Virus record (IMG/VR): IMGVR_UViG_3300048589_000279
Coordinates: 1 to 62,380 of that record
Length of the DNA: 62,380 nucleotides
Strand: one strand, 5' to 3'
Origin: a virus
Lineage: Duplodnaviria > Caudoviricetes
Part shown: positions 8,381 through 56,112 of the stretch, one piece after another
How the letters are laid out: every line of letters begins with the position of its first letter
Numbering within the stretch: the first letter of the stretch is position 1
The notes under the pieces: generated by a model
Databases searched by the model: none
Told to the model about the DNA's origin: nothing
Seen by the model: only the letters and a program-made list of their open reading frames with translations
Position numbers and translations under genes: made by a program

Positions 8381-8806
8381 TCATGGATCTGGGAGTTCGA
8401 CGGCCTCGCCAGTCACTTGCGGCTTGTTGCCGTATTTGGGTGAGCGGTAGCACTCGAAGCGGATGTTGACCACGCGGCGGGTGCCGGGGACTTCGGGCGG
8501 GTCGATCTCAAACCACGGGCTTTTCCATGAGTCGTCATCCTCGGGATCGCCTGGTCCGGTCCATTCCCAGGTCTGATCGCTAAGGTGGAAAGACCGGAAG
8601 ACGGTGGGCGATGGATCGTCCCAGCCGTCCGGTTCTTCGAGGATGTCCCAGGTGATCTTGAAGTAAGATCCGGTGAACGGCACGTCCAGTCCTGTGTTCT
8701 GATCGGTCCATGTGTCCGGGATTACCCAGCGGAATCGGAGTTTCTTGATGCTTGCCGCAGTGATCCGCTCGGGGTTCTCCGCAAGTGTCAGGTCCGACTC
8801 CGCCAT
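8381..8806 (-). CDS. Tail-region protein, probably the C-terminal part of a split gene
   Basis: KKLRFRWVIP...GSYFKITWDI; its ATG is the antisense of the integrase-remnant His codon. Confidence 0.6.
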   Translation of the reverse strand: MAESDLTLAENPERITAASIKKLRFRWVIPDTWTDQNTGLDVPFTGSYFKITWDILEEPDGWDDPSPTVFRSFHLSDQTWEWTGPGDPEDDDSWKSPWFEIDPPEVPGTRRVVNIRFECYRSPKYGNKPQVTGEAVELPDP

Positions 8807-8955
8807 TTCTTCGCCTCATACGCCATCGAGTCCGGGATTGACGTGCCCACCGTCGCCCGGTGGCTCGGGCACAAGGATGGGGGAGTCCTGGCCATGCGCA
8901 CCTACGGGCCCTCCGGGACGATCACTCGCTGGCGAGCGCCGCCAAGTTCGGGTAA
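8793..8955 (+). pseudogene. C-terminal remnant of a tyrosine recombinase
   Basis: LRHFFASYAIESGIDVPTVARWLGHKDGGVLAMRTYG then a frameshift then LRDDHSLASAAKFG*; contains box II RH, LGH and the catalytic Tyr. Confidence 0.85.
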
Positions 8956-39200: not shown

Positions 39201-42200
39201 CCGCACTCAATGCGGTGGCGATGACCGGGAGATGGTCGATGGCTTCCACCGGGGCGGTGCCATCCATGATGATGTTCTCCCGCATCCAGAGGTCGTAATC
39301 CGCCGGCGGCATCGCGGCCACCTTCGCAGGATCGGTGGTGTCAACCACTTCGACCTGTTCGGGCGTGAGTGCTCCAGGAATGTCCTCGGGTGTTACTCGT
39401 CCATCTCGTCCCGGAGGCTTTCCAGCGTCGTCCCTTCCGGCAGGTGCTCCCGGATCATTTCCAGAAACTCCGGATCGTCCTGGTTGGCCTTGATCTCGTC
39501 CCGGCACATTTTGCGATGGATCTTTACCCAATCCTTCGGCATCTCGGCGGGCTTGCTGCTCTGCGGTGTAAGCGTCGTGTTGTTCATTGTTGCGTGCGTG
39601 GAAGGTCGATTGTGCGAAATCGACGGTTTTCTGATCGGTGGACTTGAGAGCCTTCTTGAGCCATGCGGAATACCATTTCTGATTCTTGGCTCCGTTTACC
39701 ATGGCGCGAGCATCACGGGCGCTTTCAGCATCACCTCTTGCGGCAGCCTGGTCCATGAAGTTTTGAAACTGCTGCTCACTGGTGAACCGTGCCGGGGGTT
39801 TTGGTCCGCGTTGCTTGCCTGCTCCGCTCGGACCGGGTGGCGGCGGGGGCGCGGTTGCGCGTCCGGCGGCGGGCCCCGGGCGTGGTCCTGTCGATGATCC
39901 CGCGGTAGGTCCGGGGCGCGGGCCACGTCCTGCGGTCGGGCCTGGGGTTGGTCCTGCTCCCGGCGCGGGTCCAGTGCTCGGTCCAGGTGTCGGGCCTGGT
40001 GCTGGTCCCGCGGTCGGGCCTCCACCAGTCGGCGGCGGTGCACCTGGTCCAGGTGGCGGACTTCCCGGCGGCGGTGGCGGCGGGCCTCCCGGTGCGGTGG
40101 TTCCGGCCATGCTTGGCGCGGCCGGCGTCCCCTTGAGAGCTTCCTTCGCCTTGTTGATGCCTTTTCCGGCGAGTTTCACACCTCCCACGCTTCCACCCAT
40201 CAGCGCCACGATCGCCAGCGTTTGCGGGCCGACTTCTTTCACTGACTTCTTGATGCCTCCAAGGCTCCAATCGGATTCGATCTGGTCGGGGTCCGCGCCT
40301 TGAAGAATCGCCTCGGCTTTCGCCTGTCCGGCTTTCTGCTGGATGTTGGTCGCCGTCTCGCCCGCGACTTCCACACCGGCGGCGCCGATCGCCGCACCCA
40401 TCTTGAGTGCGAGCTTCTTCATGGCGTCCTTGCTGAACTTCTTCACCGTCGAAGATCCGAAGACGAACTTGCCGGCACCCATCATCACGGCGTTGCCGAC
40501 TGCTTCCGGTCCAGCTTCCCAGAGACCGGTGTCCTGGGCAATCGGCAGAAGGATCGCGTAGGCTTCCGCCTTCTCGGCTTCATTCATCGGGCGGCCCTTG
40601 GTCCGCATCGCTTCTGCCTCGAAGTCCTTCCAAGTGTCTCGCATGAAGGATTGGCCTGCCATCCGGTATGCGGCATAGCCTGACGCCGCGGCTCCTGCCA
40701 ATTCTTCCCCTGCGGTGCGACCAACGGCTGAACCGGCAGCAGTTCCTTTCGGTCCAAACACGGAACCCACTACGGATCCCGTCGCTGCACCAGCAGGACC
40801 GGTGACGTATTTGCCCACTGTGTATTTCCCCGTCACATAGGCCGCCAACGTCACCAAAGAGAAAGGCAGTGAGGGTCCGGCTTCCCGAAATGACTCACCC
40901 ACCGACGAACTTTCGCCGGCGGCCTGGTTGATGGCGGTTTTACGCTCCATCTCCTGTTGGTATGCGTCCGCCTGTGCATAGCTCCGTTCCTCGGCGGGCG
41001 TGTATTGGTCCGGGCGTTTCGGTCCCGCCCATGCCGAACGGAATCGGGTCGGTGTGGTTTTCAGACCGGTCACTGCATCCACGATGGCGGAAACCGTGTC
41101 CGCCACGTCGAAGAATTCCTTCTCGGGGATCGGAATGACCTTGGCCTGCATCTTTTCCACCAAGGTTTCATCCATCCCAGGCTTCCATTCGTTCTCGTCC
41201 GCCCACTCGCGGAAGAACTGCGCCTTCACCTCGTTCTTCTCGAACTGGTTCTTCGCGGTGTTCCATTGGTGCTTGGTGTCCGCGTCCGATTTCGAAAGCC
41301 ATTGGCCGAATGCCTGCGGCGTGCTCGGATCGGGAACCGCCATCGAAACTTTGTAGATGCCTTTCAGGAGGGACTCACCGGCCTGGACGGAAAGCGTTCC
41401 GTCACGAACCTTCTTGGCGATGTCGTCCGGTGTCGCCTGTAACATCCGCATGCGGTTGCGGAACATGTCGTCGTCCGGTGACGCTTGGCCGGCCTGGAAG
41501 ACGCTGGCGACGTATTGGGCTTCCGCCACCGTGTCACGCTGGCCATCCGCGTCCCTGAGATAGATCGGTGCGCCGGTGGTGGCCGTGAAGTCCACCGCGC
41601 GGCGGAGTTCCCCACCCTTGTCGTATCCAACCGTGATGAACGGCAGTCCGTTCTTGTCTGTGGCGATCAGCCCGACGTTGCCGTTCTTGCCCTTGATGAA
41701 CGTAAATCCATCGCCGGAGATGCCCACCGTGAGGCTGTCCGCATCCTTGATGCCAACGAAGGCGTTGCGGAATGCTTCCACCTTGGCCGGATCGTCCTGC
41801 GGGATCAGCGGGCGCGCGGCACTGCTGGGCGGACCCATCTCACCGTCTCTGGCTTGGGCGGCATCGAGCACCTCGGGCGCATAGACCAGGGGATAGGATG
41901 CCGCGGCTTCCTGCTCGGGGTTGAGAGTTCCGGTTTCCGCGGCAGCCATGGTGTCGGCGGCGCCGCCATCTTCTTCCGGCAGTCCTTGTTCGTGCCGGGT
42001 GCGATCGACTGTCAGCTTGTAGCCGTCCATCGTCGCCTGGGTGTCCGCCGCGTTGAGTGCTTCCTGCTGCGGCCGCAACTCGTCATACTTTTTCCGGGCC
42101 GTGACGTAGCGGGACTTCGCAGCTTCCAGGGCTTTTCCGTGGGTGGCTACTTCCAATTCCGTCGCCTCGGATTCCGTGCCCGTCTCCTTGTTGCGTTTGA

Positions 42201-44226: not shown

Positions 44227-46014
44227 TTAGAGAATCCGTCGTCTCCAACCGTTGATGTCGTCCGGATCCTGCGCTGATTCCAGCCTGTCGGCCCGATACT
44301 CCGTCGCGCAATCCAGCGTCTCCCAGGCCATCGCGGTTCCCATAACGTCGTCATCGTGGCATCCGCCGGCCGCCTCCGCCCGCCCGCTTGGAGTGGTGAT
44401 GAAAGACTTCAACTCCTCGATGACGTGCATGCACGGGATTTCCAGGTCGTAATTGCGGATGGCCGCGGCCAGGCCCTCGATGACGGAATTCCGATCCTGC
44501 TTGTCCATCAGGCGGAATCCGAACTGCTCCACCGTCTCCTTGGTCCTGTGACTCACCGGCCGGCGTTTGTAGAGCGGCACCCCGGAGGTCCGGAGTAAGC
44601 GGAGGATGTCGGTGGCCATGTTCATTTCGAGCACCGTGATGCACTTGCCGTAGTAGAATGAGAGCCTGGTTGCATCACCGGCTACCTCGTCACCGTCCGC
44701 ATAGAACGGGGCTTTGCGCCTTGCCACCAGTTTCGCCGGCCGCCAGGCATTCAGGTGTTGATCGTGGTAGCCTCGCCTCCACACGGTTACGCTGTGCCGG
44801 TCGGGATCCGCGCCGATCGTCTGGGACTCGTCCGTTGCCGGGTCGATGCTCACCAGGTAGCGCAATCCTTCCTGCGGGTGCTCGTAAATCTCGATGTTGC
44901 CGGCGCCGTCCCGACTCAGGCGGAAATGGATGTGGTCGCCATGCTGGGCGTGCAGGGTGCCAAGTTCGCAGTGCTGGTTCTTCGCCCTGGCCGCCATCTC
45001 GTTGAGGATCGCCATGTCGAACCGCGGGGCCCCGGATGCTGACCAGCAGGAAACCTCGTCCTCGGGGTAGTAGTAGTCGAAGATGCGCGGATCCCCGTTG
45101 CACACGTTCTTGATCGTCTCCCGGCGCCAGGCGATTTGCTCCATGTCCCAGCCGTATTTCTGGATACCGTCGCGCTCCCGTTGGTCGAGCGTGGACTGGA
45201 TGATTCCCCGCTCGTAATCGCTCACCGGTTTCTCCCGCCGGTGCTCCAGGAATTCCCACCAGGCCGCGAAGACCTTCACCCATTGCTCCTCGGGGCAAAT
45301 CCCCTGATCGTGCATGGCGATGAACTCCTCCAGGGACACGGCTTCGCACCAGGTCTTGTAATGCCAGCCCATCGCGCCCTCGGGCGTGGATTCCGCGATC
45401 ACAACCGTCCCGTCGCCCGAAAGGGAGGGAAGAACCGCGGTCATTGTCTTCTTGTCGTTCTTCGTCTGGGACTTCGGCCACTTGGAAACCTCCGAGAAAT
45501 GGCCGGCCTGCCGGGTGCCTCCAACCCCTGCATCCGGGTTTTCCGCGGTGTCGATCGTCCAGGACGTGCCGTTGGTCCACTCCAGGACGTTGTTGGCCGT
45601 CGGAATCAACTTCACCTTCCAGGGGAACGAGTCGGACGTGGAATACTCCTTGAGCTTGTCCATCAGTTCCGACGAGTGCTGCTTTTTGTCGGAAATCGTG
45701 ATCCCCTCGATGGGTTGGTTCATCCCGTGGTGGTAAACGACATGGCTGGCGAAGCTGGAGCATCCCGTCTGCCGGGGCTTCACCGCAATTAGGCGGATCT
45801 TCACGCCCATCGCCCTGAGCGTCTCATACGCCTCCGACATCCGCAGTTGCAGGATATTTGGAATCGGCTGCTCCTTGACGTTCTCCTTGTTGCGGATCGT
45901 GCAGTAGCAGGCGAAATGCACCGCGGGGCTCCGGATGGCCAGCAATTCGATTTCCTGTGGCGTCTTCCCTGCCAGCGTGTCCCGGAAGGCTTCAATCAGC
46001 GGATCAACCGTCAT
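44227..46014 (-). CDS. terL: Terminase large subunit
   Basis: VKPRQTGCSS (Walker A), HFSEV, IAESTPEG, IDPA, HDDDVM nuclease motif. Confidence 0.93.
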   Translation of the reverse strand: MTVDPLIEAFRDTLAGKTPQEIELLAIRSPAVHFACYCTIRNKENVKEQPIPNILQLRMSEAYETLRAMGVKIRLIAVKPRQTGCSSFASHVVYHHGMNQPIEGITISDKKQHSSELMDKLKEYSTSDSFPWKVKLIPTANNVLEWTNGTSWTIDTAENPDAGVGGTRQAGHFSEVSKWPKSQTKNDKKTMTAVLPSLSGDGTVVIAESTPEGAMGWHYKTWCEAVSLEEFIAMHDQGICPEEQWVKVFAAWWEFLEHRREKPVSDYERGIIQSTLDQRERDGIQKYGWDMEQIAWRRETIKNVCNGDPRIFDYYYPEDEVSCWSASGAPRFDMAILNEMAARAKNQHCELGTLHAQHGDHIHFRLSRDGAGNIEIYEHPQEGLRYLVSIDPATDESQTIGADPDRHSVTVWRRGYHDQHLNAWRPAKLVARRKAPFYADGDEVAGDATRLSFYYGKCITVLEMNMATDILRLLRTSGVPLYKRRPVSHRTKETVEQFGFRLMDKQDRNSVIEGLAAAIRNYDLEIPCMHVIEELKSFITTPSGRAEAAGGCHDDDVMGTAMAWETLDCATEYRADRLESAQDPDDINGWRRRIL

Positions 46015-46020
46015 GCCGCG

Positions 46021-46056
46021 ACTCTAGGCCGCCGGCTGGGCCTTTATACGGGCGGG
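46021..46056 (-). promoter_or_regulatory. Late promoter: CCCGCCCGT-N21-TAGAGT-N6-ATG
   Basis: Conserved motif and spacing. Confidence 0.7.
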
Positions 46057-46060
46057 ATGG

Positions 46061-46492
46061 TCACTTCCTGCCGGAGAACCGGTTGAGCCCGCTCACGACC
46101 GTCTCCGCGCGTTTCTGGAGGGCTTCCAGCGTGTTGTCGCCAGTCTCGATGGTGACTTTCTCCGGTTCGTAATGGCCGGCGAGCTTGGCATCCTCGCTGG
46201 CCGCCCTGATTCGATCGACCTTTGATGCCTTCTTGTCCCGGGCGATTTCCGCCATGATCCGGCGCTTCTCGTCCCGGCTCATCAGCTTCTCTTTCGTCAC
46301 CGGCGCCATCAGCTTTTCGATCCTTTGGATGATGTCCACCTTAGCGGCAAGCCTGGATCCGAGCTTGCGGGCTTCTCTGCGCGCGACATTGAACCCGGCA
46401 TCGAGGTAAGCATCAGTGCTGCTTCTGCCGGCAGCCTTAGCCACGCAAAAGCGTTCGTGCCTTACGTTCAAGGGTTTAGGTTTTGCGGGCAT
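46061..46492 (-). CDS. terS: Terminase small subunit
   Basis: LNVRHERFC...STDAYLDAGF...GSRL...I.QRI; adjacent to terL. Confidence 0.85.
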   Translation of the reverse strand: MPAKPKPLNVRHERFCVAKAAGRSSTDAYLDAGFNVARREARKLGSRLAAKVDIIQRIEKLMAPVTKEKLMSRDEKRRIMAEIARDKKASKVDRIRAASEDAKLAGHYEPEKVTIETGDNTLEALQKRAETVVSGLNRFSGRK

Positions 46493-46956
46493 GGGTGTTG
46501 GGTATCATGGGATGGGGTTGGGAGTCAATGGGGTTTTGGGGAGCGGATTGTGTAACGGAGCGGCGTTTGGCCTTTCGTTCTCGTTTCCGTTGGGCCGCGG
46601 CGATTCGGGCGAGGTCTTCGGGGGTTTTCTCACGGTTTGGGTCGTTGCGCTCGGCCGCGGCGGATCTTCCTCCGCCCATGCCATACATTGCGTATCCGGT
46701 AAGCATGGTTGCGATGGTGAGGAGTTGTAGAGGGCTCGGTTTCATGGCTGGAATTTCCCGGAGTATCGGTGGGGCCCCTGGTGGCCGGCGTGGAGCTTGC
46801 AGCCTCGGCCTGGCGGGCAGGCCATGCCGCGGTGATCGCACTGGACCGGTTGGGGCGGGATGACGACGATTCGCGCACTGGTTGGAATCCGGTAGCCAAG
46901 AGAGGCTTCCACGGATTTCAAGACTGCCGGCGTGATTTGGATGTTGGTGGGGTGAT

Positions 46957-47322
46957 TCATGCTGTTTTGGTTCCAGCCAGGTAGCCTCTCAAATGAACCA
47001 TAATCCATGTGAGTCCGACGGATTTTGAGGATTTGCCGCTTGTGGAGTGCATCGTGACCTGATTCAGCCGCTTGCCGATCCGCAGCGTCCATGCCCAAAC
47101 TTTCCCCGTGGAGAAATTAGTGATGCGGATTCCCCACACGGGATCACCCTGTTTGCGGGGAAGATTCTGGATCTCGATTTCCGCAAGCTCGCGGATGCGG
47201 GCGGGCATCTCCGCATCGCGGCGGGCACGGTCGGCGGACCATCTGGCTTTATTGGCCCGCTTGGAACTCTCAGAAGTCCAAGAGGTTCCGCGAGCTTTGC
47301 GGATGCGTCGATACCTTGGCAT
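46957..47322 (-). CDS. Basic hypothetical protein
   Basis: ORF from ATG 47322 with upstream AAGGAG. Confidence 0.55.
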   Translation of the reverse strand: MPRYRRIRKARGTSWTSESSKRANKARWSADRARRDAEMPARIRELAEIEIQNLPRKQGDPVWGIRITNFSTGKVWAWTLRIGKRLNQVTMHSTSGKSSKSVGLTWIMVHLRGYLAGTKTA

Positions 47323-47326
47323 GGTG

Positions 47327-47346
47327 GTTATAACTCCTTGTTCCAC
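47327..47346 (+). mobile_element. Candidate array entry site (attI-like simple site)
   Basis: GTTATAAC-tcctt-GTTCCAC; GTTCCACC is complementary to GGTGGAAC at R'' of site A. Confidence 0.5.
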
Positions 47347-47382
47347 CAAAGAGGGATCGGACCTCTCCGGTGGTGTTTCGCG

Positions 47383-47781
47383 TCAGTCGAGGTTCAGCGA
47401 TTGTTTCGCCACGGATCGCCACGCATCGGCCTGCTTTTGCTTGTTCGGATCGGCGGCGAAGTCTGCCCACGCGGGGAGCGGATCGCCGTTGAACGCGACG
47501 CCACCAACGGCTTCGCAATAGACCGAGTAGAGCAGATCGGCGTGTTCATCGAGGTTGGGCTGTTCTTTCGAGGTTTGGATGAGCGCCAGCAGCGCGTCGC
47601 CAATCGGTTCGCCGTAGCCCCATGAGCCAGGCGATCCCATCGCTCTCTCGACAGGGATTCCCTCAATCACCGATCCCAAGACGCTGATGAGCGCGGTGGT
47701 GTGATGATCCAGTTCAGGGTTGTTTTCGGCGGCGTGGTTGACGATGGCGTTGCGGAGGTCTCGTTGTTGTTGTGTTATCAT
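47383..47781 (-). CDS. Hypothetical protein (cassette 1)
   Basis: AMGSPGSWGY and YCEAVGGVAFNGDPLPAW motifs. Confidence 0.7.
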   Translation of the reverse strand: MITQQQRDLRNAIVNHAAENNPELDHHTTALISVLGSVIEGIPVERAMGSPGSWGYGEPIGDALLALIQTSKEQPNLDEHADLLYSVYCEAVGGVAFNGDPLPAWADFAADPNKQKQADAWRSVAKQSLNLD

Positions 47782-47812
47782 ATTTCGTTTGGTTTGGGGT
47801 GATTCGGAAGAG

Positions 47813-47909
47813 GTGGAACAAGACGCCGATCCCAACAGAGATGGCGTCCGAGTTCATTTAGGTAGCGGAGTCTTGCCCGCCATCTCTGTGGGATGGCTCA
47901 GCGTTCTGT
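47813..47909 (+). mobile_element. attC-like site A
   Basis: GAAC-aagac-GCC g ATCCC a ACAGAGATGGCG ... CGCCATCTCTGT GGGAT GGC-tcagc-GTTC. Confidence 0.9.
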
Positions 47910-48607
47910 GTATGAAATGGGAGCACGTCCTGCGCGAGACGAGCGGCGGCGATTTCGCAATAGCGTTCCTCCCGCTCAATCAGCACGGCACGCTTCCCGA
48001 GATTCTTCGCGGCGTGTCCTGTGGTGCCAGATCCCGCCCATGGGTCGAGGATGGTTTCCACGTTCCCCGCTTGCTGAATGCACCATTGCATCAGCCCCAG
48101 CGGCTTTTGCGTCGGATGCTGTGGGTTGCTGTCTGAGCGGCAGCGATGGTGCTTCGCTGGTCCTGGGATATTCGTGAAGGCGATTTCCGCGCTGCTTCGC
48201 GTTTCCAAGTGCTCCACATGCGGCTTTTGCCACATCAGGAACTTTTTGTGAGGCGGCAGCAGATTGCACAGGTAGTTCATCCCCCAGATGATTTGCAGGT
48301 TGGCCTTTTCCATTGCGGCGGCAATGGCTTCCCCGTCGATTTTTTCATCATCCCAGTTCCCTTTTCTTGCCATGCCGTATCGGCGCGTCGTCCTTGATCC
48401 GTCGAGTGCATTCATGCCATACGGAGGGTCGGTGAGCAGCAGGTCGAAGCGTTCCAGCATCGGCATGATTTCCCGACAGTCGCCGTGATAGATCGTCACG
48501 TATTCGTCGCGGTAGAACGGCACCGGCAACACAGAACAAGGCATCGCACCCAATGACTGCCCGGCGGCAGTTTGGGGCGAGGATGGAGCGTCAGGGCGGG
48601 CAGTCAT
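47858..48607 (-). CDS. N4-C/N6-A DNA methyltransferase, beta class (cassette 2)
   Basis: YHGDC, LTDPPY, HPTQKP, ILDPWAGSGTT. Confidence 0.93.
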   Translation of the reverse strand: MTARPDAPSSPQTAAGQSLGAMPCSVLPVPFYRDEYVTIYHGDCREIMPMLERFDLLLTDPPYGMNALDGSRTTRRYGMARKGNWDDEKIDGEAIAAAMEKANLQIIWGMNYLCNLLPPHKKFLMWQKPHVEHLETRSSAEIAFTNIPGPAKHHRCRSDSNPQHPTQKPLGLMQWCIQQAGNVETILDPWAGSGTTGHAAKNLGKRAVLIEREERYCEIAAARLAQDVLPFHTQNAEPSHRDGGQDSAT

Positions 48608-48628
48608 GGGTGGATTTTGTCGTTCATC
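48531..48628 (+). mobile_element. attC-like site B
   Basis: GAAC-aaggc-ATC g CACCC a ATGACTGCCCG ... CGGGCAGTCAT GGGTG GAT-tttgtc-GTTC. Confidence 0.9.
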
Positions 48629-48936
48629 CAAAAATCCTGTTGCCCACTGGCCGCGTGGATTCGCTCCTTGCGGCGGCGTTGGCGATCTTTCGCGTCGTGC
48701 CGGTTGTGGCAGCGTTGGCATAGTGCGGCGAGGTTTAGGAGATTCGACGCTTCGGGGCGGTCATCGAAGACATGCGCCACCGTCAGCACCACTTTCGATC
48801 CTGTCACCGGATGCGGCTGGTAGTTCTCGCATCCGCACCACTCGCAATGATTCTTGGCGCGGTAGAAGCGCACGAAGCGACTCCGAAGTTTCCAGTCTTT
48901 CGGGTATCGGTGTTTATTTTCTGCGAGGATCGGCAT
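48604..48936 (-). CDS. HNH endonuclease-like protein (cassette 3)
   Basis: CEWCG...LTVAH...NLAALCQRCHNRHD. Confidence 0.9.
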   Translation of the reverse strand: MPILAENKHRYPKDWKLRSRFVRFYRAKNHCEWCGCENYQPHPVTGSKVVLTVAHVFDDRPEASNLLNLAALCQRCHNRHDAKDRQRRRKERIHAASGQQDFWMNDKIHP

Positions 48937-48955
48937 CGGAGGTAATTCGGAAGAG

Positions 48956-49042
48956 GATGAACAAGGCGTGAGATGCGACGGCTATAAGCCGTCTTGTTGA
49001 GGCGGAGCGCAGCGATGCCGCGCATCCACATCGGCGTTCGGC
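48956..49042 (+). mobile_element. attC-like site C
   Basis: GAAC-aaggc-GTG a GATGCG a CGGC ... GCCG CGCATC CAC-atcggc-GTTC. Confidence 0.9.
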
Positions 49043-49308
49043 TGACGAATGCGGAGATACCATGTCTCAGGTGTCCAGACGTGTCCGCAGTCGGTGCAAC
49101 GGTCCATGTGCTGGAACTCGGCTCCTGCCCGTTCGCGCCCGTGTTTCCCGCATTCGGGGCAGTGTCTTCCGGCTGGCCACCAGTCAATGATCCAGCCCGA
49201 TTCGGCAGTGATCTTTTCCGTGATCGACGCAAGCCGAACAAGACGCAGCACAGAACCGCTGACCGCGGCGTTGTCCTGCGTGCTAGCAATGTCTGATTCC
49301 GCTGTCAT
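48982..49308 (-). CDS. Zn-ribbon protein (cassette 4)
   Basis: CPECG...CTDCGHVW. Confidence 0.7.
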   Translation of the reverse strand: MTAESDIASTQDNAAVSGSVLRLVRLASITEKITAESGWIIDWWPAGRHCPECGKHGRERAGAEFQHMDRCTDCGHVWTPETWYLRIRQPNADVDARHRCAPPQQDGL

Positions 49309-49332
49309 CGGTCCGTGTGCTCTGCGTTCGGC
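49233..49332 (+). mobile_element. attC-like site D
   Basis: GCCGAAC-aagac-GCAGCACAGAACCG ... CGGTCCGTGTGC-tctgc-GTTCGGC. Confidence 0.8.
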
Positions 49333-49724
49333 TCAAAGAATCCGCAGTCCTTTCCGCTATCCAACCAGATTGGCTGGCGCTCTTCGCGGAGCATCACGCA
49401 GGCGGGGGCTTTCCATTCCGGCAGTGGGTGCAGGCAGCGGCCCGAGACAGACGGGCGTGGGAGTCCGTTGAAGTCGGCGTGCTTGCAGTCGCCACAGGTG
49501 CCGCAGACGCGGGGAGATTCATCGTTCCTCCAGATGAGCTTGGCGAGAGCGTCGCACAATTCCCCGGTGTCTTTTGTGTCGAGATAGGCGACTTGACCGT
49601 TTGAGTGATGGATCGCCAGCCCAGCCGCCTCGTTGATGAAGTTGGCGCTCAGTGGCGTAGTGGGCAAAGCCGAACAAGACGTGGCTGCGGCAACCGGCGT
49701 TTCGCTTTCCAATTTCTTACTCAT
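49305..49724 (-). CDS. Cys-rich hypothetical protein (cassette 5)
   Basis: CGTCGDCKH...GRC...DCGFFEP. Confidence 0.7.
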   Translation of the reverse strand: MSKKLESETPVAAATSCSALPTTPLSANFINEAAGLAIHHSNGQVAYLDTKDTGELCDALAKLIWRNDESPRVCGTCGDCKHADFNGLPRPSVSGRCLHPLPEWKAPACVMLREERQPIWLDSGKDCGFFEPNAEHTDR

Positions 49725-49768
49725 GATCGTTCCTTTCGCTGCCGGTGGCAGCACTTGTTTCGTTCGGG
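49669..49768 (+). mobile_element. attC-like site E
   Basis: CCGAAC-aagac-GTG g CTGC..ACCGGC ... GCCGGT g GCAG CAC-ttgtttc-GTTCGG. Confidence 0.8.
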
Positions 49769-50328
49769 GGACAAAGTTTCACGCCCTCCAACGGGCATTT
49801 CAGAAGCGTTTCCTTGGCGCGGTCGCCATAGCCGATCAGCACGCTGGGAGAGGTTGCGCACGATCCGCCGCCCGTCCGCTGGAACTTTCCGCCCCGCGTG
49901 TCGTGGAAGCGGACGCGCCCCGATAGGAAGAGCATGGCGGCAGCGGTCTTGCTGACGGACTGAAACCACTTGGTATCCGAGCGAGCGAACACAAGCGCGA
50001 TGCCGTCGCCGTGGAGCGCAAGTCGCTCCATCCATTCCGCGATTTGCGAGCCGTAGGGCGGATTTAGCCACACATGCCCGGACCATTCGCGGGTGAGTCC
50101 ATCGTCCAGCACCGTGAAGCCCCTAGCGGCGGTTTCCCACGGCTGGTGCAGCGACATGCACGGGTCGAGATCGAACGGCCCGAGAGCGTCGAGGATGTGG
50201 CGCGGCGTGATCCAGTCGTGGGTCTGCGCCGTCGTCCGCTCATGCCCGTGGAAGCCGCCCGAACAAGGCAGCGCATGGAACGCCGGGGAAGTCGGTTCTT
50301 GAATCATAGTCTTGGGGTCGGCGTCCAT
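49717..50328 (-). CDS. Phage N6-adenine (Dam-family) methyltransferase (cassette 6)
   Basis: DWITP, FDLDPC, DDGL..EW...VWLNPPY, LVFARSDTKWF, GRVRF. Confidence 0.92.
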   Translation of the reverse strand: MDADPKTMIQEPTSPAFHALPCSGGFHGHERTTAQTHDWITPRHILDALGPFDLDPCMSLHQPWETAARGFTVLDDGLTREWSGHVWLNPPYGSQIAEWMERLALHGDGIALVFARSDTKWFQSVSKTAAAMLFLSGRVRFHDTRGGKFQRTGGGSCATSPSVLIGYGDRAKETLLKCPLEGVKLCPPNETSAATGSERNDHE

Positions 50329-50345
50329 GGCTTTAGGCGTTCTCC
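50258..50345 (+). mobile_element. attC-like site F
   Basis: GAAC-aaggc-AGC g CATGG a ACGCCG ... CGGCGT CCATG GCT-ttaggc-GTTC. Confidence 0.9.
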
Positions 50346-50680
50346 TCAATATCCTCCGTGGGCAGAAGTGCCCGCGCATCGCAGGTTATGTCGTGAGCTT
50401 CCACCTTCCAGTCCCGTGGATCGCGGACTTTCAGGTCGCGAATACTCACGACCTCATGGTCGCTGATATCGATCCGGTCGCTGTAATGGTCCCATGAGTC
50501 TTCCCAGTCTTCGACGTGCTTCAGCGCATCTGCTTCGGAGGCGGCGAAGATGACGGCGTTGCGGCGGATCAAGACGCTCACCTCGAAAAGCCGAGGAGAA
50601 CAAGCCGTGTCTGGCGACCCGGCCTCGTCTCTTGTTGGTTCGGAGATTTGGCCCTCCGCTGGCACTGATTGGTTTTGCAT
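50333..50680 (-). CDS. Hypothetical protein (cassette 7)
   Basis: Starts inside site G and stops inside site F. Confidence 0.7.
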   Translation of the reverse strand: MQNQSVPAEGQISEPTRDEAGSPDTACSPRLFEVSVLIRRNAVIFAASEADALKHVEDWEDSWDHYSDRIDISDHEVVSIRDLKVRDPRDWKVEAHDITCDARALLPTEDIEENA

Positions 50681-50729
50681 AGATTTTAGGTGTTACGCTG
50701 GCCGGATCGCCAGCACTTAGACGTTGTGT
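50595..50729 (+). mobile_element. attC-like site G
   Basis: GAAC-aagcc-GTG t CTGGCGACCCGGCC ... GGCCGGATCGCCAG CAC-ttagac-GTTG. Confidence 0.88.
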
Positions 50730-51043
50730 GAAGAATATCCTCGAAGTAGTTTCCCCATGGCTTGGGCGATTGTGAGCGAGTCGAGCACGTAGATGGTCCA
50801 CTCTTCGCGCTCCGCCCTCATCCTTTCGCGTCGATATACAGCCTCTTCGCGAATGAATTCGGACGGCAGCGCGGTTGCATACTCGAACTCCATCACTGGG
50901 CGGTCCGCGCACACTTTCCAATATGGCTGACCGGGATCAGGGCGGCGTTGTCCATCGGCAAGCCCTCCGATGAAGAGCACACAACAAAACGTGAGACGCA
51001 ATCCGCTATCAGCGGCATTGTCAGCTTTTGGGGAATCAGACAT
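50717..51043 (-). CDS. Hypothetical protein (cassette 8)
   Basis: LFIGGLADGQRR motif; starts inside site H. Confidence 0.7.
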   Translation of the reverse strand: MSDSPKADNAADSGLRLTFCCVLFIGGLADGQRRPDPGQPYWKVCADRPVMEFEYATALPSEFIREEAVYRRERMRAEREEWTIYVLDSLTIAQAMGKLLRGYSSHNV

Positions 51044-51099
51044 CTTCGGGCTTCGTTGGGGTTTTCTCGTCGGCGGATGCGTCCACATCGGCGTTCGGA
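50979..51099 (+). mobile_element. attC-like site H
   Basis: CAAC-aaaac-GTG a GACGC a ATCCGC ... GCGGAT GCGTC CAC-atcggc-GTTC. Confidence 0.9.
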
Positions 51100-51350
51100 A
51101 GATCAACCAGCTCCACCTCGACGGTGCGGCATTCCTCTTCGGATTCGGCCATAGAGCAGATTGCTTGCATCGCATGCCACTGATCCACGTCCGTCCATTG
51201 CGCGATTTTCCCGCAGCCGTGGCGTTCTAGGCTGACCCACACGATTTTGCTGCCGGGATAGCAGAATCGGGTTCCAAGCGGAAGATCGAAAAACTTCCGA
51301 ACAAGGCGTGGCTGGAGCAACGCGGCTCCGGTGTGAGTTTGATTTTGCAT
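51036..51350 (-). CDS. Hypothetical protein (cassette 9)
   Basis: FFDLPLGTRFCY motif; starts in site I and stops in site H. Confidence 0.7.
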   Translation of the reverse strand: MQNQTHTGAALLQPRLVRKFFDLPLGTRFCYPGSKIVWVSLERHGCGKIAQWTDVDQWHAMQAICSMAESEEECRTVEVELVDLPNADVDASADEKTPTKPEDV

Positions 51351-51419
51351 GGTAGTTACTGAGTTTTGGGAGTTATCGGCGTAGCGCTCTCGCCGCGTGC
51401 CAGCACATCGACGTCCGCG
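51296..51419 (+). mobile_element. attC-like site I (terminal; R' is GTC rather than GTT)
   Basis: GAAC-aaggc-GTG g CTGG..ACGCGGC ... GCCGCGT g CCAG CAC-atcgac-GTCC. Confidence 0.8.
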
Positions 51420-51592
51420 GGAATCAGGCTGACCAGGAACTTCCCGCGGGTCATTTCTCCGCGGAGCGAGTCCACGGCCTCCAGCTTGTCAGGCAGCAGG
51501 GAACAGGTGACGACGGTTGCAGTGCGACCGGTGCTCGGTTTGACTCCGGCTCCGGGGCGTTTCCCCCCGCGGGTGGTCTTGGGCTTAGTCAT
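51356..51592 (-). CDS. Small DNA-binding-like protein (RGGKRPGAG motif)
   Basis: Basic GGxRxGAG motif followed by an RHH-like region; C-terminus in site I. Confidence 0.65.
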   Translation of the reverse strand: MTKPKTTRGGKRPGAGVKPSTGRTATVVTCSLLPDKLEAVDSLRGEMTRGKFLVSLIPADVDVLARGESATPITPKTQ

Positions 51593-51791
51593 GGCGTTGG
51601 GTGATTCGGACTTTTTGGACCAGGTTCCAGTTGATCGGGGTGCCGGCCGGCGCCAGTTTGGTCCACACTTTTTCGAGTTCGGATTGAGTCGGCGCAATGA
51701 TGGCACAGCGATAGCCGTTGTGGTCGATGACGGTTGACCATTTGAATTCAGACGGATCGTGTTTCTTCGGTTGTTTTTTGGCGATTGGCAT
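51585..51791 (-). CDS. Hypothetical protein
   Basis: Coupled small ORF. Confidence 0.55.
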   Translation of the reverse strand: MPIAKKQPKKHDPSEFKWSTVIDHNGYRCAIIAPTQSELEKVWTKLAPAGTPINWNLVQKVRITQRHD

Positions 51792-51881
51792 GGGTTCAGA
51801 GGGTTGAGAGTTGCTGGTTGAGGACGAAGGAGAGCAACGCCAGGACGGCGAGCACTCCGATCAGGATGGCGGCGACGTATT

Positions 51882-52082
51882 TCATCGGAGGAGTAGTTTG
51901 GCGAAGAGCCAGGCGAATGCCGGGGCCATGACGATTGCCGCGGCAACGATGCCCATCGGGGTAATGCGGGGGTTCCTTGCCGGTTGTGGGGCCGGGTAGG
52001 CCAGCGATGCTAGGCGGATGTCGTTGAGGATCTGCCGGCGTGATTTCCGGGCTTGCCGGATGTCGAATGGGTCTTGGTTCAT
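51882..52082 (-). CDS. Small membrane protein
   Basis: C-terminal hydrophobic helix. Confidence 0.55.
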   Translation of the reverse strand: MNQDPFDIRQARKSRRQILNDIRLASLAYPAPQPARNPRITPMGIVAAAIVMAPAFAWLFAKLLLR

Positions 52083-52105
52083 ATTCGTTTGGTTTGGGGT
52101 GAGGG

Positions 52106-52315
52106 TTAGCGGGTTTGGTAGTCCATTTCCTCAGTGCGCGTTACGCTGATGTCGGACGGTTTTGCATCATATCCGCGCTGTTGCAGGTTAGCGGCGACGA
52201 TGCGGGCTGCACCACGGTTGGTCGGGGTCTTGGCCGAACGTGGGCGGATGACGGAAACCTGCCCTTCCTCGTTGCGTGTTCCGGCGGTGTAGTTGATTGT
52301 GAGGTATGTTTTCAT
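52106..52315 (-). CDS. Hypothetical protein
   Basis: ORF downstream of TTGACG-N17-TATCCG (about 52364-52392). Confidence 0.55.
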   Translation of the reverse strand: MKTYLTINYTAGTRNEEGQVSVIRPRSAKTPTNRGAARIVAANLQQRGYDAKPSDISVTRTEEMDYQTR

Positions 52316-52409
52316 GGTCTTTTTTTTGTTTGGGGTGGGCCTCATTGCCTGCCGATGGAAAACGGATAGCGGTTCCGTTATTAACCGTCAAATGAATTCG
52401 TTATTATTT

Positions 52410-52769
52410 TTAGAGTGCCGGTTTCGAGGGTGTTTTTCCCGTCTCTTCCGGGTGCAGGATTTGCCGCTCGACGGCTTGCGCTTGGGCGAGCGTGCATGGA
52501 ACGACGAAGAGAACGAATCTGGCAATGTCGCCGGGATACGTGTCCCGCGCCACCACGACGAAGCAGGAGAGGCTTGGGCTTGCGTCCAGCACTTTGCCAA
52601 GCTCCGCGCTCTGTGACTCGTCCAGAACAATCCTCGTCGCCGTGGGGTGCCGTAGCGGGTCAATCAGTGGTCCCATTGCCATCTTCGGGCGGATCCTCGG
52701 GTTCGGGGTTCGGTTTGTCGTGCTTCTTGCCGAATATCCGGTCGTAGCCGGATCGGTAGGCTTCGCCAT
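52410..52769 (-). CDS. Hypothetical protein (start uncertain)
   Basis: ORF in the leftward operon. Confidence 0.5.
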   Translation of the reverse strand: MAKPTDPATTGYSARSTTNRTPNPRIRPKMAMGPLIDPLRHPTATRIVLDESQSAELGKVLDASPSLSCFVVVARDTYPGDIARFVLFVVPCTLAQAQAVERQILHPEETGKTPSKPAL

Positions 52770-52826
52770 CCACTGCGCGGGGGCAATCCCCCTTGCCCGC
52801 TCCTTCTTGTGCCATGTGCATGTTTC

Positions 52827-53180
52827 TCATTGGTCTGTTTCTGGTTTGGGGATTCCGGCCCGCATCTTGGCGAGCATCGGGATTACAACCGTCTCGTAGA
52901 GGTATTCACGACAGGCGGCAACGTGGCGACATTCTACACGCCCGGTCAATGGGTAGGGAATGAACGTGCCGTGACGCTTCCAGTTCGGATTTGCTCGGCA
53001 TGAAAAGTCATGGCAGGAACAGCTTCCGAGTCCTCCCCGGTCGGTCATATCGACCAAATACCATCCAATGTCGGCGGATCTGGATTCCACACGGTAGCGG
53101 AAAGCCGCTCCGACATCCTCGCTGACGTTGGGCATCTCCATCATTGCCCGTTGCTCCTTGGCTTTGGCTTCTTGGGTCAT
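52827..53180 (-). CDS. SWIM Zn-finger protein
   Basis: YRVESRS...YLVD...CSCHDF...CRHV. Confidence 0.8.
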   Translation of the reverse strand: MTQEAKAKEQRAMMEMPNVSEDVGAAFRYRVESRSADIGWYLVDMTDRGGLGSCSCHDFSCRANPNWKRHGTFIPYPLTGRVECRHVAACREYLYETVVIPMLAKMRAGIPKPETDQ

Positions 53181-53788
53181 GGCTTCGTTTTTCGTTGTTT
53201 TAGCGGGTAGTGGAAGCGCCACTTGGAAACACGGGGGATTCGTGTAACGTCGGCATCGGGGGGCATGTTCCCTTTGCGCCCATACTTCTTGCCCGTGCGG
53301 GCGTCCACGTAGTCGCAGCGCGGGCTTTTCCGCTCGTCGTCGGTCATCCCGTCATGCCGCCAGTTCGCGGCCTTGTAGATCGTCCCGGCGTGTCCTGCGG
53401 ACGGGTCCGCGTAGCTCAAAAGGTGTTCAACGTCCCGGTGCGTCCGTTGGATGTAGCGGATGCTTTGGCCGATCAACCACGTTTCCGCGTTGCGGGGGAT
53501 TTCGTCCAGTAGGTAAAGGCGGGCGAGTTCCCATGTCTTGCCGCCATACCGCTTGTCAGCTTCCCGTGGCGGGGCTGAGTAGATGATGCACCCCACCGGT
53601 TCGCCATTGGTTAGCATCATCAGGCACAGGAGCACTATTGCGGGACGTTTCCCAAGGTAATGACGGCAAATGAAGTCGTCTACGTTGGCGACGGAGCACG
53701 GCTGAATTTTGGAAATAGACCGCCACGATGAATCAAACTTCTCGGAAGTTGGTAATTCGGCAGAGAGTCCGGGAAGGTTTCCGTTCAT
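53177..53788 (-). CDS. mom: Mom-family adenine-modification protein (GNAT fold)
   Basis: RHYL, WELARLY...PRNAETWLIG, SYADPSAGHAGTIYKAANW. Confidence 0.85.
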   Translation of the reverse strand: MNGNLPGLSAELPTSEKFDSSWRSISKIQPCSVANVDDFICRHYLGKRPAIVLLCLMMLTNGEPVGCIIYSAPPREADKRYGGKTWELARLYLLDEIPRNAETWLIGQSIRYIQRTHRDVEHLLSYADPSAGHAGTIYKAANWRHDGMTDDERKSPRCDYVDARTGKKYGRKGNMPPDADVTRIPRVSKWRFHYPLKQRKTKP

Positions 53789-54174
53789 GGCTTTGAAAAC
53801 ATGGTCGCCATCGCTTCGAGTTCGTCCGCGATCTCGGAAAGCAGTTTCATCTTTACACACGGCCAGCCTTCGGGAACGTGGTCGATCTCCAATATGCGGA
53901 TTTCCCCCACCAGTTCCTTCCAGCGGGGCTTTGGCGGTGGCTTTGGGACTCTCTCCCGCTTCTTGCGCTCCTCGCCTTCCACCGGTGCCTTGCGTGCGAT
54001 CGGCGGGCCCTTCTGGCTGCCGGCCTCGATCTCCTCGGGACTCACCCAGACAATACCCCAATCGTCTCGAAGGGGTTTGACCTTGGCCATCCCCTGCCAA
54101 CGTTCAATCAAAGTGCCGGAGGCGCGGAGCTTGCGTCCTTCACGTCGATAGGAAATGAGCGGGGCGGTTTTCAT
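53785..54174 (-). CDS. Hypothetical protein
   Basis: ATGA-coupled to the mom-like gene. Confidence 0.6.
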   Translation of the reverse strand: MKTAPLISYRREGRKLRASGTLIERWQGMAKVKPLRDDWGIVWVSPEEIEAGSQKGPPIARKAPVEGEERKKRERVPKPPPKPRWKELVGEIRILEIDHVPEGWPCVKMKLLSEIADELEAMATMFSKP

Positions 54175-54356
54175 GGCTCGATCAGGTATTCGCACTCAAA
54201 GGCGATGATGGCAGGCGGCGAAATCATGGAAACCATTTCAGTCCGTGGCGCGGTTCTCCGCAGGCAGGTTTCGCATCCTTCACGCCAGCCTTCTTCTTCG
54301 CTGCCGGAGCCGTCGCAGCGGGCTACGTCGTTGGGGAGTGTGGTCATGGCGGTGGA

Positions 54357-54689
54357 TCAGAACGGAATAATCGAGTCCGGATCTTCGTCCAGTGCGTCGT
54401 TGGTAGCTGCAAGCGGTGGTGCCTGCTGGCGCTGGCGCTGCGGTGGCGCGGCTTTGGTGGTCTCGCCTTTCTGTGATCCCGGAACAATCGTTCCGTCGCC
54501 TATGAACGGGGTTTCCTCGCCGCGGCGGTCCTTGCCCAAGTCCTGCTTGATCCCACCGTTCTTGCCATACTGGTTGGGTTCGTCGTCATAGAAGTAAGTG
54601 AGGTCGGCATAGGTGCCTTGCTTGCCTTTGAAAAAGGCTGTCTTGTCGAGCTTGGTGACATCGATCTTGAGTCGAATGATCTGTTTCAT
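54357..54689 (-). CDS. Single-stranded DNA-binding-like protein
   Basis: KIDVTKLDK...GKQGTY...NQYGKNG; acidic tail ending IPF. Confidence 0.7.
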   Translation of the reverse strand: MKQIIRLKIDVTKLDKTAFFKGKQGTYADLTYFYDDEPNQYGKNGGIKQDLGKDRRGEETPFIGDGTIVPGSQKGETTKAAPPQRQRQQAPPLAATNDALDEDPDSIIPF

Positions 54690-54865
54690 GTTGTTTGTTG
54701 GTTCTGGAGAGTTTCAATCTTGGCACGGCATGCCTGGATGCAGGCCGTGTGCTCGGCTTCGAGGGCTTCATCCTCCGCCTCGTCCGGGGACTTCCAGTTC
54801 TTGCGGCGGGCCGCCTGGATCGTCTCGATGCAGGCAAGGAGTTGGTCGATTTGTTCGGCAATCAT
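54686..54865 (-). CDS. Small helical protein (59 aa, below the track cut-off)
   Basis: ATGA overlaps on both sides; MIAEQIDQLL...RRKNWKSPDEAEDE. Confidence 0.7.
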   Translation of the reverse strand: MIAEQIDQLLACIETIQAARRKNWKSPDEAEDEALEAEHTACIQACRAKIETLQNQQTT

Positions 54866-56112
54866 GGGTTTAGTACTTCTTCACAGGTTTGGATGAACTC
54901 GGCTGCAACTTGCGGGACGATGGCGTTTCCCGCGCCACGGAGCAAAGGAGGGCGGATACTCCTGCGTCGTGCCAAGCCTGACACCACGTATTGCCCATCA
55001 TTAGCCAAAGGGAAAAGGCCGGGTTCAACTGGAATTTGCCGGAGCTTTCCGTCTCGGCATTGGATGAGGGTTCCAGCCCACTCGTTTGAGCGGTCAAGGT
55101 GTCCGCTACTCCCCTGCTGTGTCTCATTCCGCAGCACTCCGCATCCTCCGCCCGTGCTGTCGCCCAGCCCGCCGGAGTCATTCCCGCTACAAGACCGCCC
55201 ATCAGCATCTCGCCCTTCCTCGCTCCGCCTCTGCTCGTCTGCCCGCCGGTCATCGTGTTCGGAGTTGGCCATAGCTCGCACAGGTGCGCAACCCTCGGCA
55301 GTTGATCCAGCCGCGTGCGTGTCGAGCCGTCCGGGTTGGTTCCCGTCTCCGACATCCCCGGCGTATCCTTCCAGTCCCGCGCCGAAGCCGTTGGCCAGCC
55401 GGCCATGATTCCCTCCACGCTCTGCGGAGTCAGGCGTTGCCGTTTCCCGCCGTGATCGTTCCCGCGGTTCTCGCTCATGTTTGGTGCCTGCGTCACTTGT
55501 GGAGTTGGCCATGGGGCCATCGAGGCTGCATCGTTCAAGGTCGTTCCGGTGTGTGCTCCGCGCGCCTTCCTTGCCTCGTCGCTCTCCGGTCCCCTGCATG
55601 AGTCCGTCTGCACTGGCGTGGGCCATCCAGTAAAGTCGCTGGCGCTGATGCGGCGCACCGACGCTGAATGCGCCCAATACAGCCGCCCCGACCGTGTAGC
55701 CTTCCGACTCCATTTCTGTTGATACAACATCGAGCCAGTCGAATCCAATCGCTGCCGCAACCTGTTCCCCAAAGACTCGCTCAGGGCGTTTGACTTGGAC
55801 AAGGCGACGGAACACAGGCCAGAGGTTGCGTTCATCTGCCGCGCCTTCCTGCTTTCCGCTGGCGGAATAGGGTTGGCAGGGCAAAGAGGCTGTCCAAACA
55901 GGTCGAGACTCAGGCCAGCCGGCGAGTTTGAGAGCAAGGGGCCAGAGTCCAATTCCGGCGAAGAAGTGGCATTGTGTGAATCCGTCGAGTTCATGGGGTT
56001 GTATTTCGGTGATGGAACGATCATCGACCACACCGGCCGGGATCAGGTTGCGGGCGATCAACTCACGCAGCCATGCGGCGGCATGCGGATCGTATTCGTT
56101 GTAGTAGTTCAC
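54862..56112 (-). CDS. C5-cytosine DNA methyltransferase, main (alpha) frame
   Basis: HFFAGIG, LPCQPYS, FGEQV, PHQRQRLY, LRGAGNAIVPQVA. Confidence 0.9.
   Translation of the reverse strand: MNYYNEYDPHAAAWLRELIARNLIPAGVVDDRSITEIQPHELDGFTQCHFFAGIGLWPLALKLAGWPESRPVWTASLPCQPYSASGKQEGAADERNLWPVFRRLVQVKRPERVFGEQVAAAIGFDWLDVVSTEMESEGYTVGAAVLGAFSVGAPHQRQRLYWMAHASADGLMQGTGERRGKEGARSTHRNDLERCSLDGPMANSTSDAGTKHEREPRERSRRETATPDSAERGGNHGRLANGFGAGLEGYAGDVGDGNQPGRLDTHAAGSTAEGCAPVRAMANSEHDDRRADEQRRSEEGRDADGRSCSGNDSGGLGDSTGGGCGVLRNETQQGSSGHLDRSNEWAGTLIQCRDGKLRQIPVEPGLFPLANDGQYVVSGLARRRSIRPPLLRGAGNAIVPQVAAEFIQTCEEVLNP
54870..55994 (-). CDS. Nested alternative-frame polypeptide with WPTP repeats (MTase beta-like; start uncertain)
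   Basis: Same-strand frame open for more than 1.1 kb; repeated WPT(P/A); motif-IX-like QLNPAFSLWLM. Confidence 0.65.
   Translation of the reverse strand: MNSTDSHNATSSPELDSGPLLSNSPAGLSLDLFGQPLCPANPIPPAESRKARQMNATSGLCSVALSKSNALSESLGNRLRQRLDSTGSMLYQQKWSRKATRSGRLYWAHSASVRRISASDFTGWPTPVQTDSCRGPESDEARKARGAHTGTTLNDAASMAPWPTPQVTQAPNMSENRGNDHGGKRQRLTPQSVEGIMAGWPTASARDWKDTPGMSETGTNPDGSTRTRLDQLPRVAHLCELWPTPNTMTGGQTSRGGARKGEMLMGGLVAGMTPAGWATARAEDAECCGMRHSRGVADTLTAQTSGLEPSSNAETESSGKFQLNPAFSLWLMMGNTWCQAWHDAGVSALLCSVARETPSSRKLQPSSSKPVKKY

Follow-up and report, generated by a model that had tools for sequence, protein, structure and literature searches.

Integron-type attC sites between single genes of a complete phage genome that lacks an integron integrase

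Among the gene-capture systems of bacteria, integrons are the best known; what part they play in phages is only beginning to be described. Whether and how such a system can exist in a virus that carries no recombinase is the question raised by positions 47,327-51,419 of IMG/VR record IMGVR_UViG_3300048589_000279, where nine hairpin sites resembling attC, the recombination site of integron cassettes, stand between single genes. The whole record of 62,380 bases (hereafter the window) was analysed; it has direct terminal repeats and a CheckV completeness of 100%, and its source is a complete double-stranded DNA (dsDNA) phage. Groups of at least two attC sites with no integron integrase nearby have been defined as attC-site clusters that lack an integron integrase (CALIN; PMC9024848), and the window contains exactly this, namely nine attC sites and no IntI in the whole record. 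We consider it probable that this is a genuine integron-type array of cassettes, devoid of an integrase and located in a complete, recombinase-less dsDNA phage, and that its units are exchanged at G|TT by an integrase of the IntI family.

Layout and identity of the attC sites

All nine sites (A-I) that a sequence-only reading had placed between single genes are present where it located them, packed into 3.6 kb. Each of them shows the same order of AAC (in the R'' box), a 5-nt spacer (AAGRC-like), 3 bp, an extra base and 6 bp; a second extra A is reported for seven of the nine, a small internal loop for E and I, and a mismatch for G. The distal part of each site consists of the remaining stem, a variable loop, the return arm, a 5-7-nt spacer and GTT (in the R' box). 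AAC occurs in all nine sites and GTT in eight, and both boxes are also present in two further sites of the window, X1 and X2. Core lengths, counted from GAAC to GTTC, range from 48 to 129 nt, the structure being kept while sequence and loop length vary.

The sites were modelled with a covariance model (R2), which was seeded from sites C and F, chosen because they gave a clean alignment (MAFFT left the 3' arms of the nine sites and of subsets unaligned), and then widened with its own matches to seven phage sites. On the 62-kb window R2 reports 11 sites, including four that had been held out (E 3e-5 to 7e-3), and no match beyond these 11 at E<1. The nine array sites all lie on the plus strand; fold z-scores compare predicted DNA energies with those of mononucleotide shuffles.

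47812-47911 (+): site A, core 47816-47906; R2 58.3 bits; DNA fold z -4.0; geometry as described
48529-48629 (+): site B, core 48534-48625; R2 61.5 bits
48955-49041 (+): site C, core 48959-49039; R2 60.0 bits; 77% identity with a site of the IntI-bearing phage G001 (see below)
49232-49331 (+): site D, core 49236-49329; R2 49.7 bits
49668-49769 (+): site E, core 49672-49765; R2 28.6 bits, held-out
50258-50347 (+): site F, core 50261-50342; R2 62.9 bits
50593-50730 (+): site G, core 50598-50726; R2 22.2 bits, held-out; longest loop; R' = GTTG
50978-51101 (+): site H, core 50982-51096; R2 31.5 bits, held-out
51294-51421 (+): site I, last in the array, core 51299-51416; R2 28.9 bits, held-out
6668-6759 (-): attC site X2; R2 59.0 bits; resembles site B
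7528-7575 (-): attC site X1; compact, 48 nt; R2 42.2 bits

Among 24 sites of the family, aligned by fitting to the model and hence in a way that favours the structure, 96.3% of cells are paired, compared with 32-41% when the partners are slid by one to three columns. Changes on both sides are found at all 13 pairs of the L stem, and the cells with such changes number 116 against 39.6 +/- 4.3 in shuffles, none of 500 reaching 116. Both the controls with slid partners and the detection of held-out sites speak for a real signal. G-U pairs occupy only 2 of 404 cells, and this near absence of wobble pairs fits a hairpin formed in DNA better than one formed in RNA.

As a positive control served a class 1 integron from a Pseudomonas plasmid (L030), with intI1, aac(6')-IIa, catB3 and qacEdelta1. 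R2, which was built from phage sites only, recovers both of its attC sites, located after aac(6')-IIa and catB3, with 30.9 and 32.1 bits (E about 1e-6). Both align over the full length of the model without any non-standard pair and with their two extra bases at the same model positions; L030 gave no further R2 match at E<0.1, the next best having E=0.13. Rfam 15, in which attC has no family, gave nothing for 46000-53000 even at E<=10. By their structure, by the cross-detection of class 1 attC and by the junction rule treated below, the sites are integron-type attC sites. The earlier identification of attC, and of junctions that look like products of G|TT crossover, is thereby borne out; the contig break points at GTT described in the following section agree with it.

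Junctions, cassette exchange and the integrase of related phages

In an integron, the R' box of one site and the R'' box of the next should carry the trace of their joining, and all eight complementary R'/R'' pairs named in the sequence-only reading do match. The nucleotides common to both flanks after GTT number 4-6 in 8 of 8 adjacent pairs (mean 5.25), while the 73 non-adjacent combinations have a mean of 1.25 and a maximum of 5, the latter due to a repeated GGCT. The same rule holds for 7 of 7 pairs in five other viral loci (two of them near-identical) and for 38 of 46 pairs in IntI-linked arrays. At the second locus of the window, the R' of site X1 (GTTCGTCCT) is the reverse complement of the R'' of site X2.

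Window positions 46900-51900 were further compared with contigs of four public runs, which are named X1, X2, X3 and X5 and are not to be confused with the sites X1 and X2. A contig of 14,280 nt from run X1 shows 0 differences from the window between 49762 and 50341 and is unlike it on both sides. Since 49762 is the G in the GTT of site E and 50341 the second T in the GTT of site F, the shared piece is exactly the Dam cassette (gF, see below) with its own attC. In other contigs likeness to the window ends at 47903 in run X3, at 49765 in run X2, and at both 48624 and 49764 in run X5; these positions are the R' triplets of sites A, B and E. Two other viral loci, G001 and L043, have one cassette in common with ~71% DNA identity. 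The identity is ~35% up to the R' of the preceding site, where it jumps to 90%, and it continues through the gene and into that cassette's attC before declining. In these comparisons cassettes are seen to be exchanged, with breaks at G|TT. All runs with matching contigs had small shares (0.05-0.11), which point to no habitat or strain. Three joints inside genes and one in the loop of site G, each found in one contig of run X5, were left unused as evidence. The latter contig skips 68 nt of the loop (50624-50693) and is weak, being a single contig with a short side of 26 nt; it suggests that natural variants of site G with a shorter loop occur. A search for relatives by means of the large terminase returned 12 loci (best identity 63%), with one site in L005 and none in the other 11, and none of them was close enough to the window for gene gain and loss to be scored.

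That the phage lacks an integrase had also been claimed, and profile searches agree: the complete record yielded no full tyrosine recombinase (PF00589, TIGR02249) and no serine recombinase (PF00239), and the window gave no match to the IntI protein of G001 as query. The sole trace of a recombinase is a C-terminal fragment of ~30 residues (17 bits) at 8795-8881 (+), in the gap between two minus-strand open reading frames (ORFs) of the tail region. It retains the catalytic RH...LGH...Y pattern (PF00589, 17 bits), does not look IntI-like, and could derive from a phage integrase since lost, or from the end of a host gene that was copied.

Relatives of the array do possess such an enzyme. A 17-nt motif common to sites C and H led to viral contigs with arrays of the same family, among them that of G001, a complete 37.7-kb phage with a 338-residue recombinase ~60 nt from its first cassette boundary. 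This protein scores 234.7 bits over the full length of the TIGR02249 model, just under the curated cut-off of 265, and is 40.9% identical to IntI1. Its best solved relative is Vibrio IntI4/VchIntIA (2a3v; E 1e-34), with which it aligns unbroken through a stretch that we take to be the IntI-specific insert. Searching with an alignment of relatives of the G001 integrase, we found IntI relatives encoded in 63 IMG/VR loci, 33 of which contain a total of 90 R2 sites. The class 1 arrangement, with the site upstream of intI and on the opposite strand, is found for 82 of these sites; four others lie downstream and four are in the other orientation. Where more than 1 kb is available upstream of intI, 27 of 46 loci show a site so arranged. 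In 15 of the 22 loci examined, the R'' of the first site has its partner 34-81 nt before the integrase match, and this partner is preceded by a TAAT..CT|GTT motif shared by 14 aligned viral loci. Named relatives of the G001 integrase are found only in metagenome-assembled genomes (MAGs) of Verrucomicrobiota (45-49% identity), a weak lead that permits no host call.

Some further observations concern the integrases of these relatives. An identical copy of the G001 integrase (L029 4374-5390; P0121) is encoded on another contig, 243,649 bases long, and G001 has a second tyrosine recombinase of 447 aa, so that this phage is probably temperate and seen both free and integrated. In P0005, a predicted protein of 183 aa, a Dam core (95% identical to that of the window) is continued in frame by the catalytic C-terminal portion of a tyrosine recombinase, as though a deletion had fused a Dam cassette in first position to the adjoining integrase gene.

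The R'' of site A also finds a partner, the ninth in all: GTTCCACC at 47340-47347, which lacks a hairpin. The elements at the boundaries of the array are as follows.

47327-47347 (+): attI-like lone boundary, ending ...CTT G|TTCCACC; no hairpin; perfect inverted repeat of 11 nt shared with site A's R''
46957-47322 (-): g0, 121 aa; no Pfam match; sits where related arrays have intI
51356-51592 (-): gR, 78-aa phage gene upstream of the array, from translation and frame test

The lone boundary lies 18-21 nt ahead of the start codon of g0. In the 16-locus alignment used for the attI comparison (a three-way alignment of the window, L043 and G001 being uninformative) it partly matches the TAAT..CT|GTT motif of the family, differing at one of two nearly invariant columns, and it abuts g0, not intI. 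Its sequence makes a role as attI plausible but not settled. A homologue of g0 with 57% identity is found in L043, directly after an array of seven sites and a similar boundary motif. Past the last detected site of L043 (2424-2470), a short AAC...GTT-like palindrome, not called by the model, stands at the start of the next gene and may be a degenerate terminal site. At the other end of the window's array, gR runs into site I with its last 19 codons, in the frame that the cassette genes use. The outer flanks of site I and of sites X1 and X2 have no partner anywhere in the window. Joining the outer half-sites in silico produces a plausible gR-g0 gene junction; gR beside g0 was found in no locus, and this reconstruction of the empty site remains an idea.

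Cassette genes and predicted translation through the sites

The array accommodates nine genes, all on the minus strand, and a second, single-cassette locus is formed by a gene that sites X1 and X2 bracket (6668-7575).

47383-47781 (-): cassette 1, gA, 132 aa; no Pfam or PHROG match; start 35 nt outside site A
47858-48607 (-): cassette 2, gB, N6/N4 DNA methyltransferase (PF01555 8.6e-19; phrog_67 3.5e-43, domain from residue 29)
48604-48936 (-): cassette 3, gC, HNH endonuclease (phrog_1571 1.4e-19)
48982-49308 (-): cassette 4, gD, Zn-ribbon-like (weak PF12773/PF09723 matches, below cut-off)
49305-49724 (-): cassette 5, gE, 139 aa, Cys-rich; no family match
49717-50328 (-): cassette 6, gF, Dam-type N6-adenine methyltransferase (PF05869 8.1e-12)
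50333-50680 (-): cassette 7, gG, 115 aa; no family match
50717-51043 (-): cassette 8, gH, 108 aa; no family match
51036-51350 (-): cassette 9, gI, 104 aa; no family match
6686-7459 (+): gene of the solitary cassette, PAPS-reductase-like (phrog_424 1.7e-47, domain from residue 27), antisense to its attC

This cargo is the one previously proposed, i.e. two methyltransferases (PF01555, PF05869), an HNH protein (phrog_1571) and Zn-finger-type proteins, the Zn-ribbon matches being weak. The two cassette methyltransferases are likely anti-restriction functions. Compared with the proteins of other arrays, only the methyltransferases have relatives, and matches at the DNA level are confined to the sites themselves.

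Orientation was controlled with the class 1 integron, in which R2 matches the coding strand, whereas in the phage it matches the strand opposite the genes. This disposition extends to the IntI-linked viral arrays: after four near-duplicate loci had been dropped, 21 bodies between sites contain an antisense ORF only, one a sense ORF only, 13 both and 11 neither. An exception is a cassette of G001 (L029 2915-3217, -), whose 100-aa gene has the classical sense orientation and its own upstream region.

The genes are also interlocked with the sites. The start codon lies inside the gene's own attC in eight of ten cassette genes and 23-35 nt beyond it in the other two; gB, for example, starts within site B and stops within site A. 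Since the methyltransferase and PAPS-reductase domains begin only at residues 26-29, the first ~25 residues are tails encoded by the hairpin arm. Two different reading frames pass through the conserved box on this N-terminal side, and its conservation is therefore not a protein constraint. At the other end, AAC is an in-frame Asn codon in every gene that reaches an R' box, and the stop follows 2-19 codons on, in the attC of the neighbour. This frame rule holds at all nine sites of the window and, for the longest upstream open frame, at 66 of 81 sites in other viral loci (12 have another frame and three lack a long frame), the chance expectation being one third. Because the genes mostly start in their own attC, cross AAC in frame and stop in the neighbour, the phage operon would express every cassette, and any reshuffling would keep a closed frame.

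The array region is part of a minus-strand operon. Its neighbours on one side are genes of replication and recombination, coding for a DnaB-like helicase, an exonuclease and an annealing protein of the Erf type, and on the other the small and large terminase genes. Outside the array, at 53177-56112 (-), the phage encodes a Mom-like protein (phrog_1384) and a C5-type DNA methyltransferase (phrog_363); counting the two cassette methyltransferases and the PAPS-reductase-like gene, it has at least five DNA-modification functions. In the structural region there is a single ORF of 6,264 codons (24298-43092, -), an exceptionally large phage protein.

Alternative origins and relation to known integrons

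Several observations weigh against a true integron-type array with units exchanged by an IntI-family enzyme. All ten cassette genes of the window run antisense to attC; in the classical system the promoterless cassettes have the sense orientation and their expression is driven by a promoter on the integrase side (PMC5027507). The last site, I, has GTC at its end instead of GTT. Of the classical layout, AAC, the 5-nt spacer, 3 bp, extra base and 6 bp stand in nine of nine sites, and the uniform GTT ending and the sense of the genes do not. Predicted fold energies clearly beat those of shuffles for A-D only; those of E-I are no better (z -1.3 to +1.3, plus strand), and for H and I the consensus stem is absent from the minimum-energy fold. 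On thermodynamic grounds alone, the sites would therefore have been missed. Folding of the bottom strand, suggested earlier as a check, spoke against the claim: this strand is the more stable one in only four of nine sites and hence has no folding advantage. The proximal extra base of the top strand is G in six of nine sites but C in both class 1 sites, and the sign of the top-strand GC skew (+0.095; AT skew -0.16) is at odds with the mostly negative GC skew of attC sites from mobile integrons (PMC5027507). For the average of such sites the same source describes a bottom strand that folds better and is purine-rich, as a statistical tendency and not a strict criterion. A scan of genome contigs with the G001 integrase detected only distant recombinases (23-32% identity). 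Finally, close homologues of the Dam protein (90-93% identical) differ from that of the window not only in their C-terminal tails, which is expected, but also in their N-terminal tails; as the N-terminal tail comes from the cassette's own attC arm, this points to occasional replacement of attC or to exchange also at the R'' side. The classical mechanism predicts no exchange there.

These features have to be weighed against three other accounts of the locus. Equally, the array could be what an IntI-bearing ancestor left behind once it had lost intI, static and frozen, its hairpins persisting only as carriers of starts, tails and stops; we regard this origin as unlikely. It would explain why the array is placed as in IntI-bearing relatives, just upstream of the packaging genes, why an attI-like motif remains with g0 in the position of intI, and why site I has GTC at its end; moreover, the small terminase of the window is 39% identical to those of the IntI-bearing loci L051 and L053, and CALINs have been proposed to be degraded integrons (PMC9024848). 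A frozen array is hard to reconcile, however, with a 100% identical Dam cassette in an unrelated contig, which points to a very recent transfer in one lineage or the other, or with pairing and bulge geometry that are intact in all nine sites. Furthermore, the cassettes of L043, which has g0 and the boundary motif in common with the window, are entirely different ones; the position has therefore turned over with no intI nearby (the L043 record being 66% complete).

Considerably less probable still is that another enzyme, such as a Xer-like or other host recombinase, or Erf and exonuclease acting on short ends, moved the cassettes and that the likeness to attC is convergent. The phage does encode an Erf-like annealing protein and an exonuclease, and the Dam homologues break at the R'' side as well, but the conserved ends measure only 9-10 nt and the break points fall at the single position G|TT, the model cross-detects true attC sites, and an IntI-type neighbour is present in every IntI-linked locus examined, with the class 1 arrangement prevailing as described. 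Elements acting in a polycistronic mRNA, i.e. terminators, processing sites or translational couplers, would account for the transcription of the hairpins and for the stop and start codons of neighbouring genes in their loops (e.g. overlapping ATGA and ATGTCTGA). Such elements would leave unexplained why flanks are complementary across genes, why the sites are linked to intI and why cassettes are exchanged whole. With G-U pairs almost absent, a conserved box whose two frames make it neither a peptide nor a purely RNA signal, and an empty Rfam scan, a role in RNA only has next to no probability; we reject it for the scarcity of G-U pairs, the flank complementarity, the intI linkage and the cassette exchange.

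We therefore favour an integron-type array without integrase. Its unit would be one gene with one attC hairpin, cut and joined at the G|TT of R' by an IntI-family integrase, and its cargo would be phage-type accessory functions: two methyltransferases, an HNH nuclease, Zn-ribbon proteins and proteins without assigned function. Since the phage has no integrase, the enzyme must come from elsewhere, such as a host integron or a co-resident related phage that encodes IntI, or was recently lost; its identity and source for this phage, its supply in trans and the expression of the cassettes are what we infer.

On a wider joint reading we are evenly divided. According to it, the array would belong to a distinct, apparently undescribed lineage of phage-borne integrons that is built in reverse, with genes on the recombinogenic bottom strand, co-directional with intI and mostly starting in their own attC. 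AAC would be a fixed in-frame codon and attC a universal module for C-terminal tail and stop, and expression of all cassettes would come from the phage operon and not from an integrase-end promoter; transcription, by displacing the coding strand, might aid folding of the bottom strand. Members without integrase would keep an attI-like site and draw on a shared cassette pool through the integrases of co-infecting phages or hosts. In the full-text literature searched, antisense cassette genes, translation through attC and a large phage-borne IntI clade were not found described. The antisense layout and the reading of AAC in frame across the crossover are thus apparently undescribed; no mention of antisense genes was found in the text of PMC9892861, whose supplementary tables may hold similar arrays.

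The window indicates that a recombinase-less virus can hold a long array of intact attC cassettes with genes of the anti-restriction type, and at least one of these cassettes (Dam) circulates unchanged among unrelated DNA molecules in nature. If true, the family-wide reversed orientation and the fixed-frame translation through the sites would be a new design rule of cassette systems, and the part unexpected to specialists. It would open predictions as to which strand is recombined, whether transcription promotes the folding of the sites, and whether shuffled cassettes are always translatable. Searching between attC sites also offers a route to the accessory and counter-defence genes of uncultured phages.

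The nearest known systems are the arrays reported from a survey of 10,705 phage genomes, whose text describes integrons and 17 CALINs, each with at least two sites, five methyltransferase cassettes interpreted as anti-restriction, and recombination by IntI1 of five of six phage attC sites tested (Qi et al. 2023, Front Microbiol, PMC9892861). Phage CALINs as a kind are therefore already published. Like the window, those of the survey are attC arrays without intI that carry methyltransferase cassettes, in temperate and virulent phages; as far as that text describes them, they differ in coming from cultured or deposited genomes, while the window derives from an uncultured phage with nine sites and a second locus, in which the genes are all antisense with starts and stops in the sites and an attI-like boundary is kept. 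Integron integrases are further reported to insert cassettes outside att sites (bioRxiv 10.1101/2022.09.11.507474), which would provide an entry route without attI, e.g. for the solitary cassette at 6668-7575; the main array, by contrast, starts at a motif that is more like the attI of the family than like a random GTT. With the class 1 system (IntI1, attI1, attC) and that of Vibrio (IntI4/VchIntIA, 2a3v) the window shares attC geometry and the G|TT junction rule, and the related phages share with them the integrase family and a position of intI upstream of the sites on the opposite strand. The window departs from both in that it has no intI, that its genes lie on the bottom strand and point towards the intI position, that they start in their own attC and end in that of the neighbour in a fixed frame, and that the extra base and the GC skew of its sites are different.

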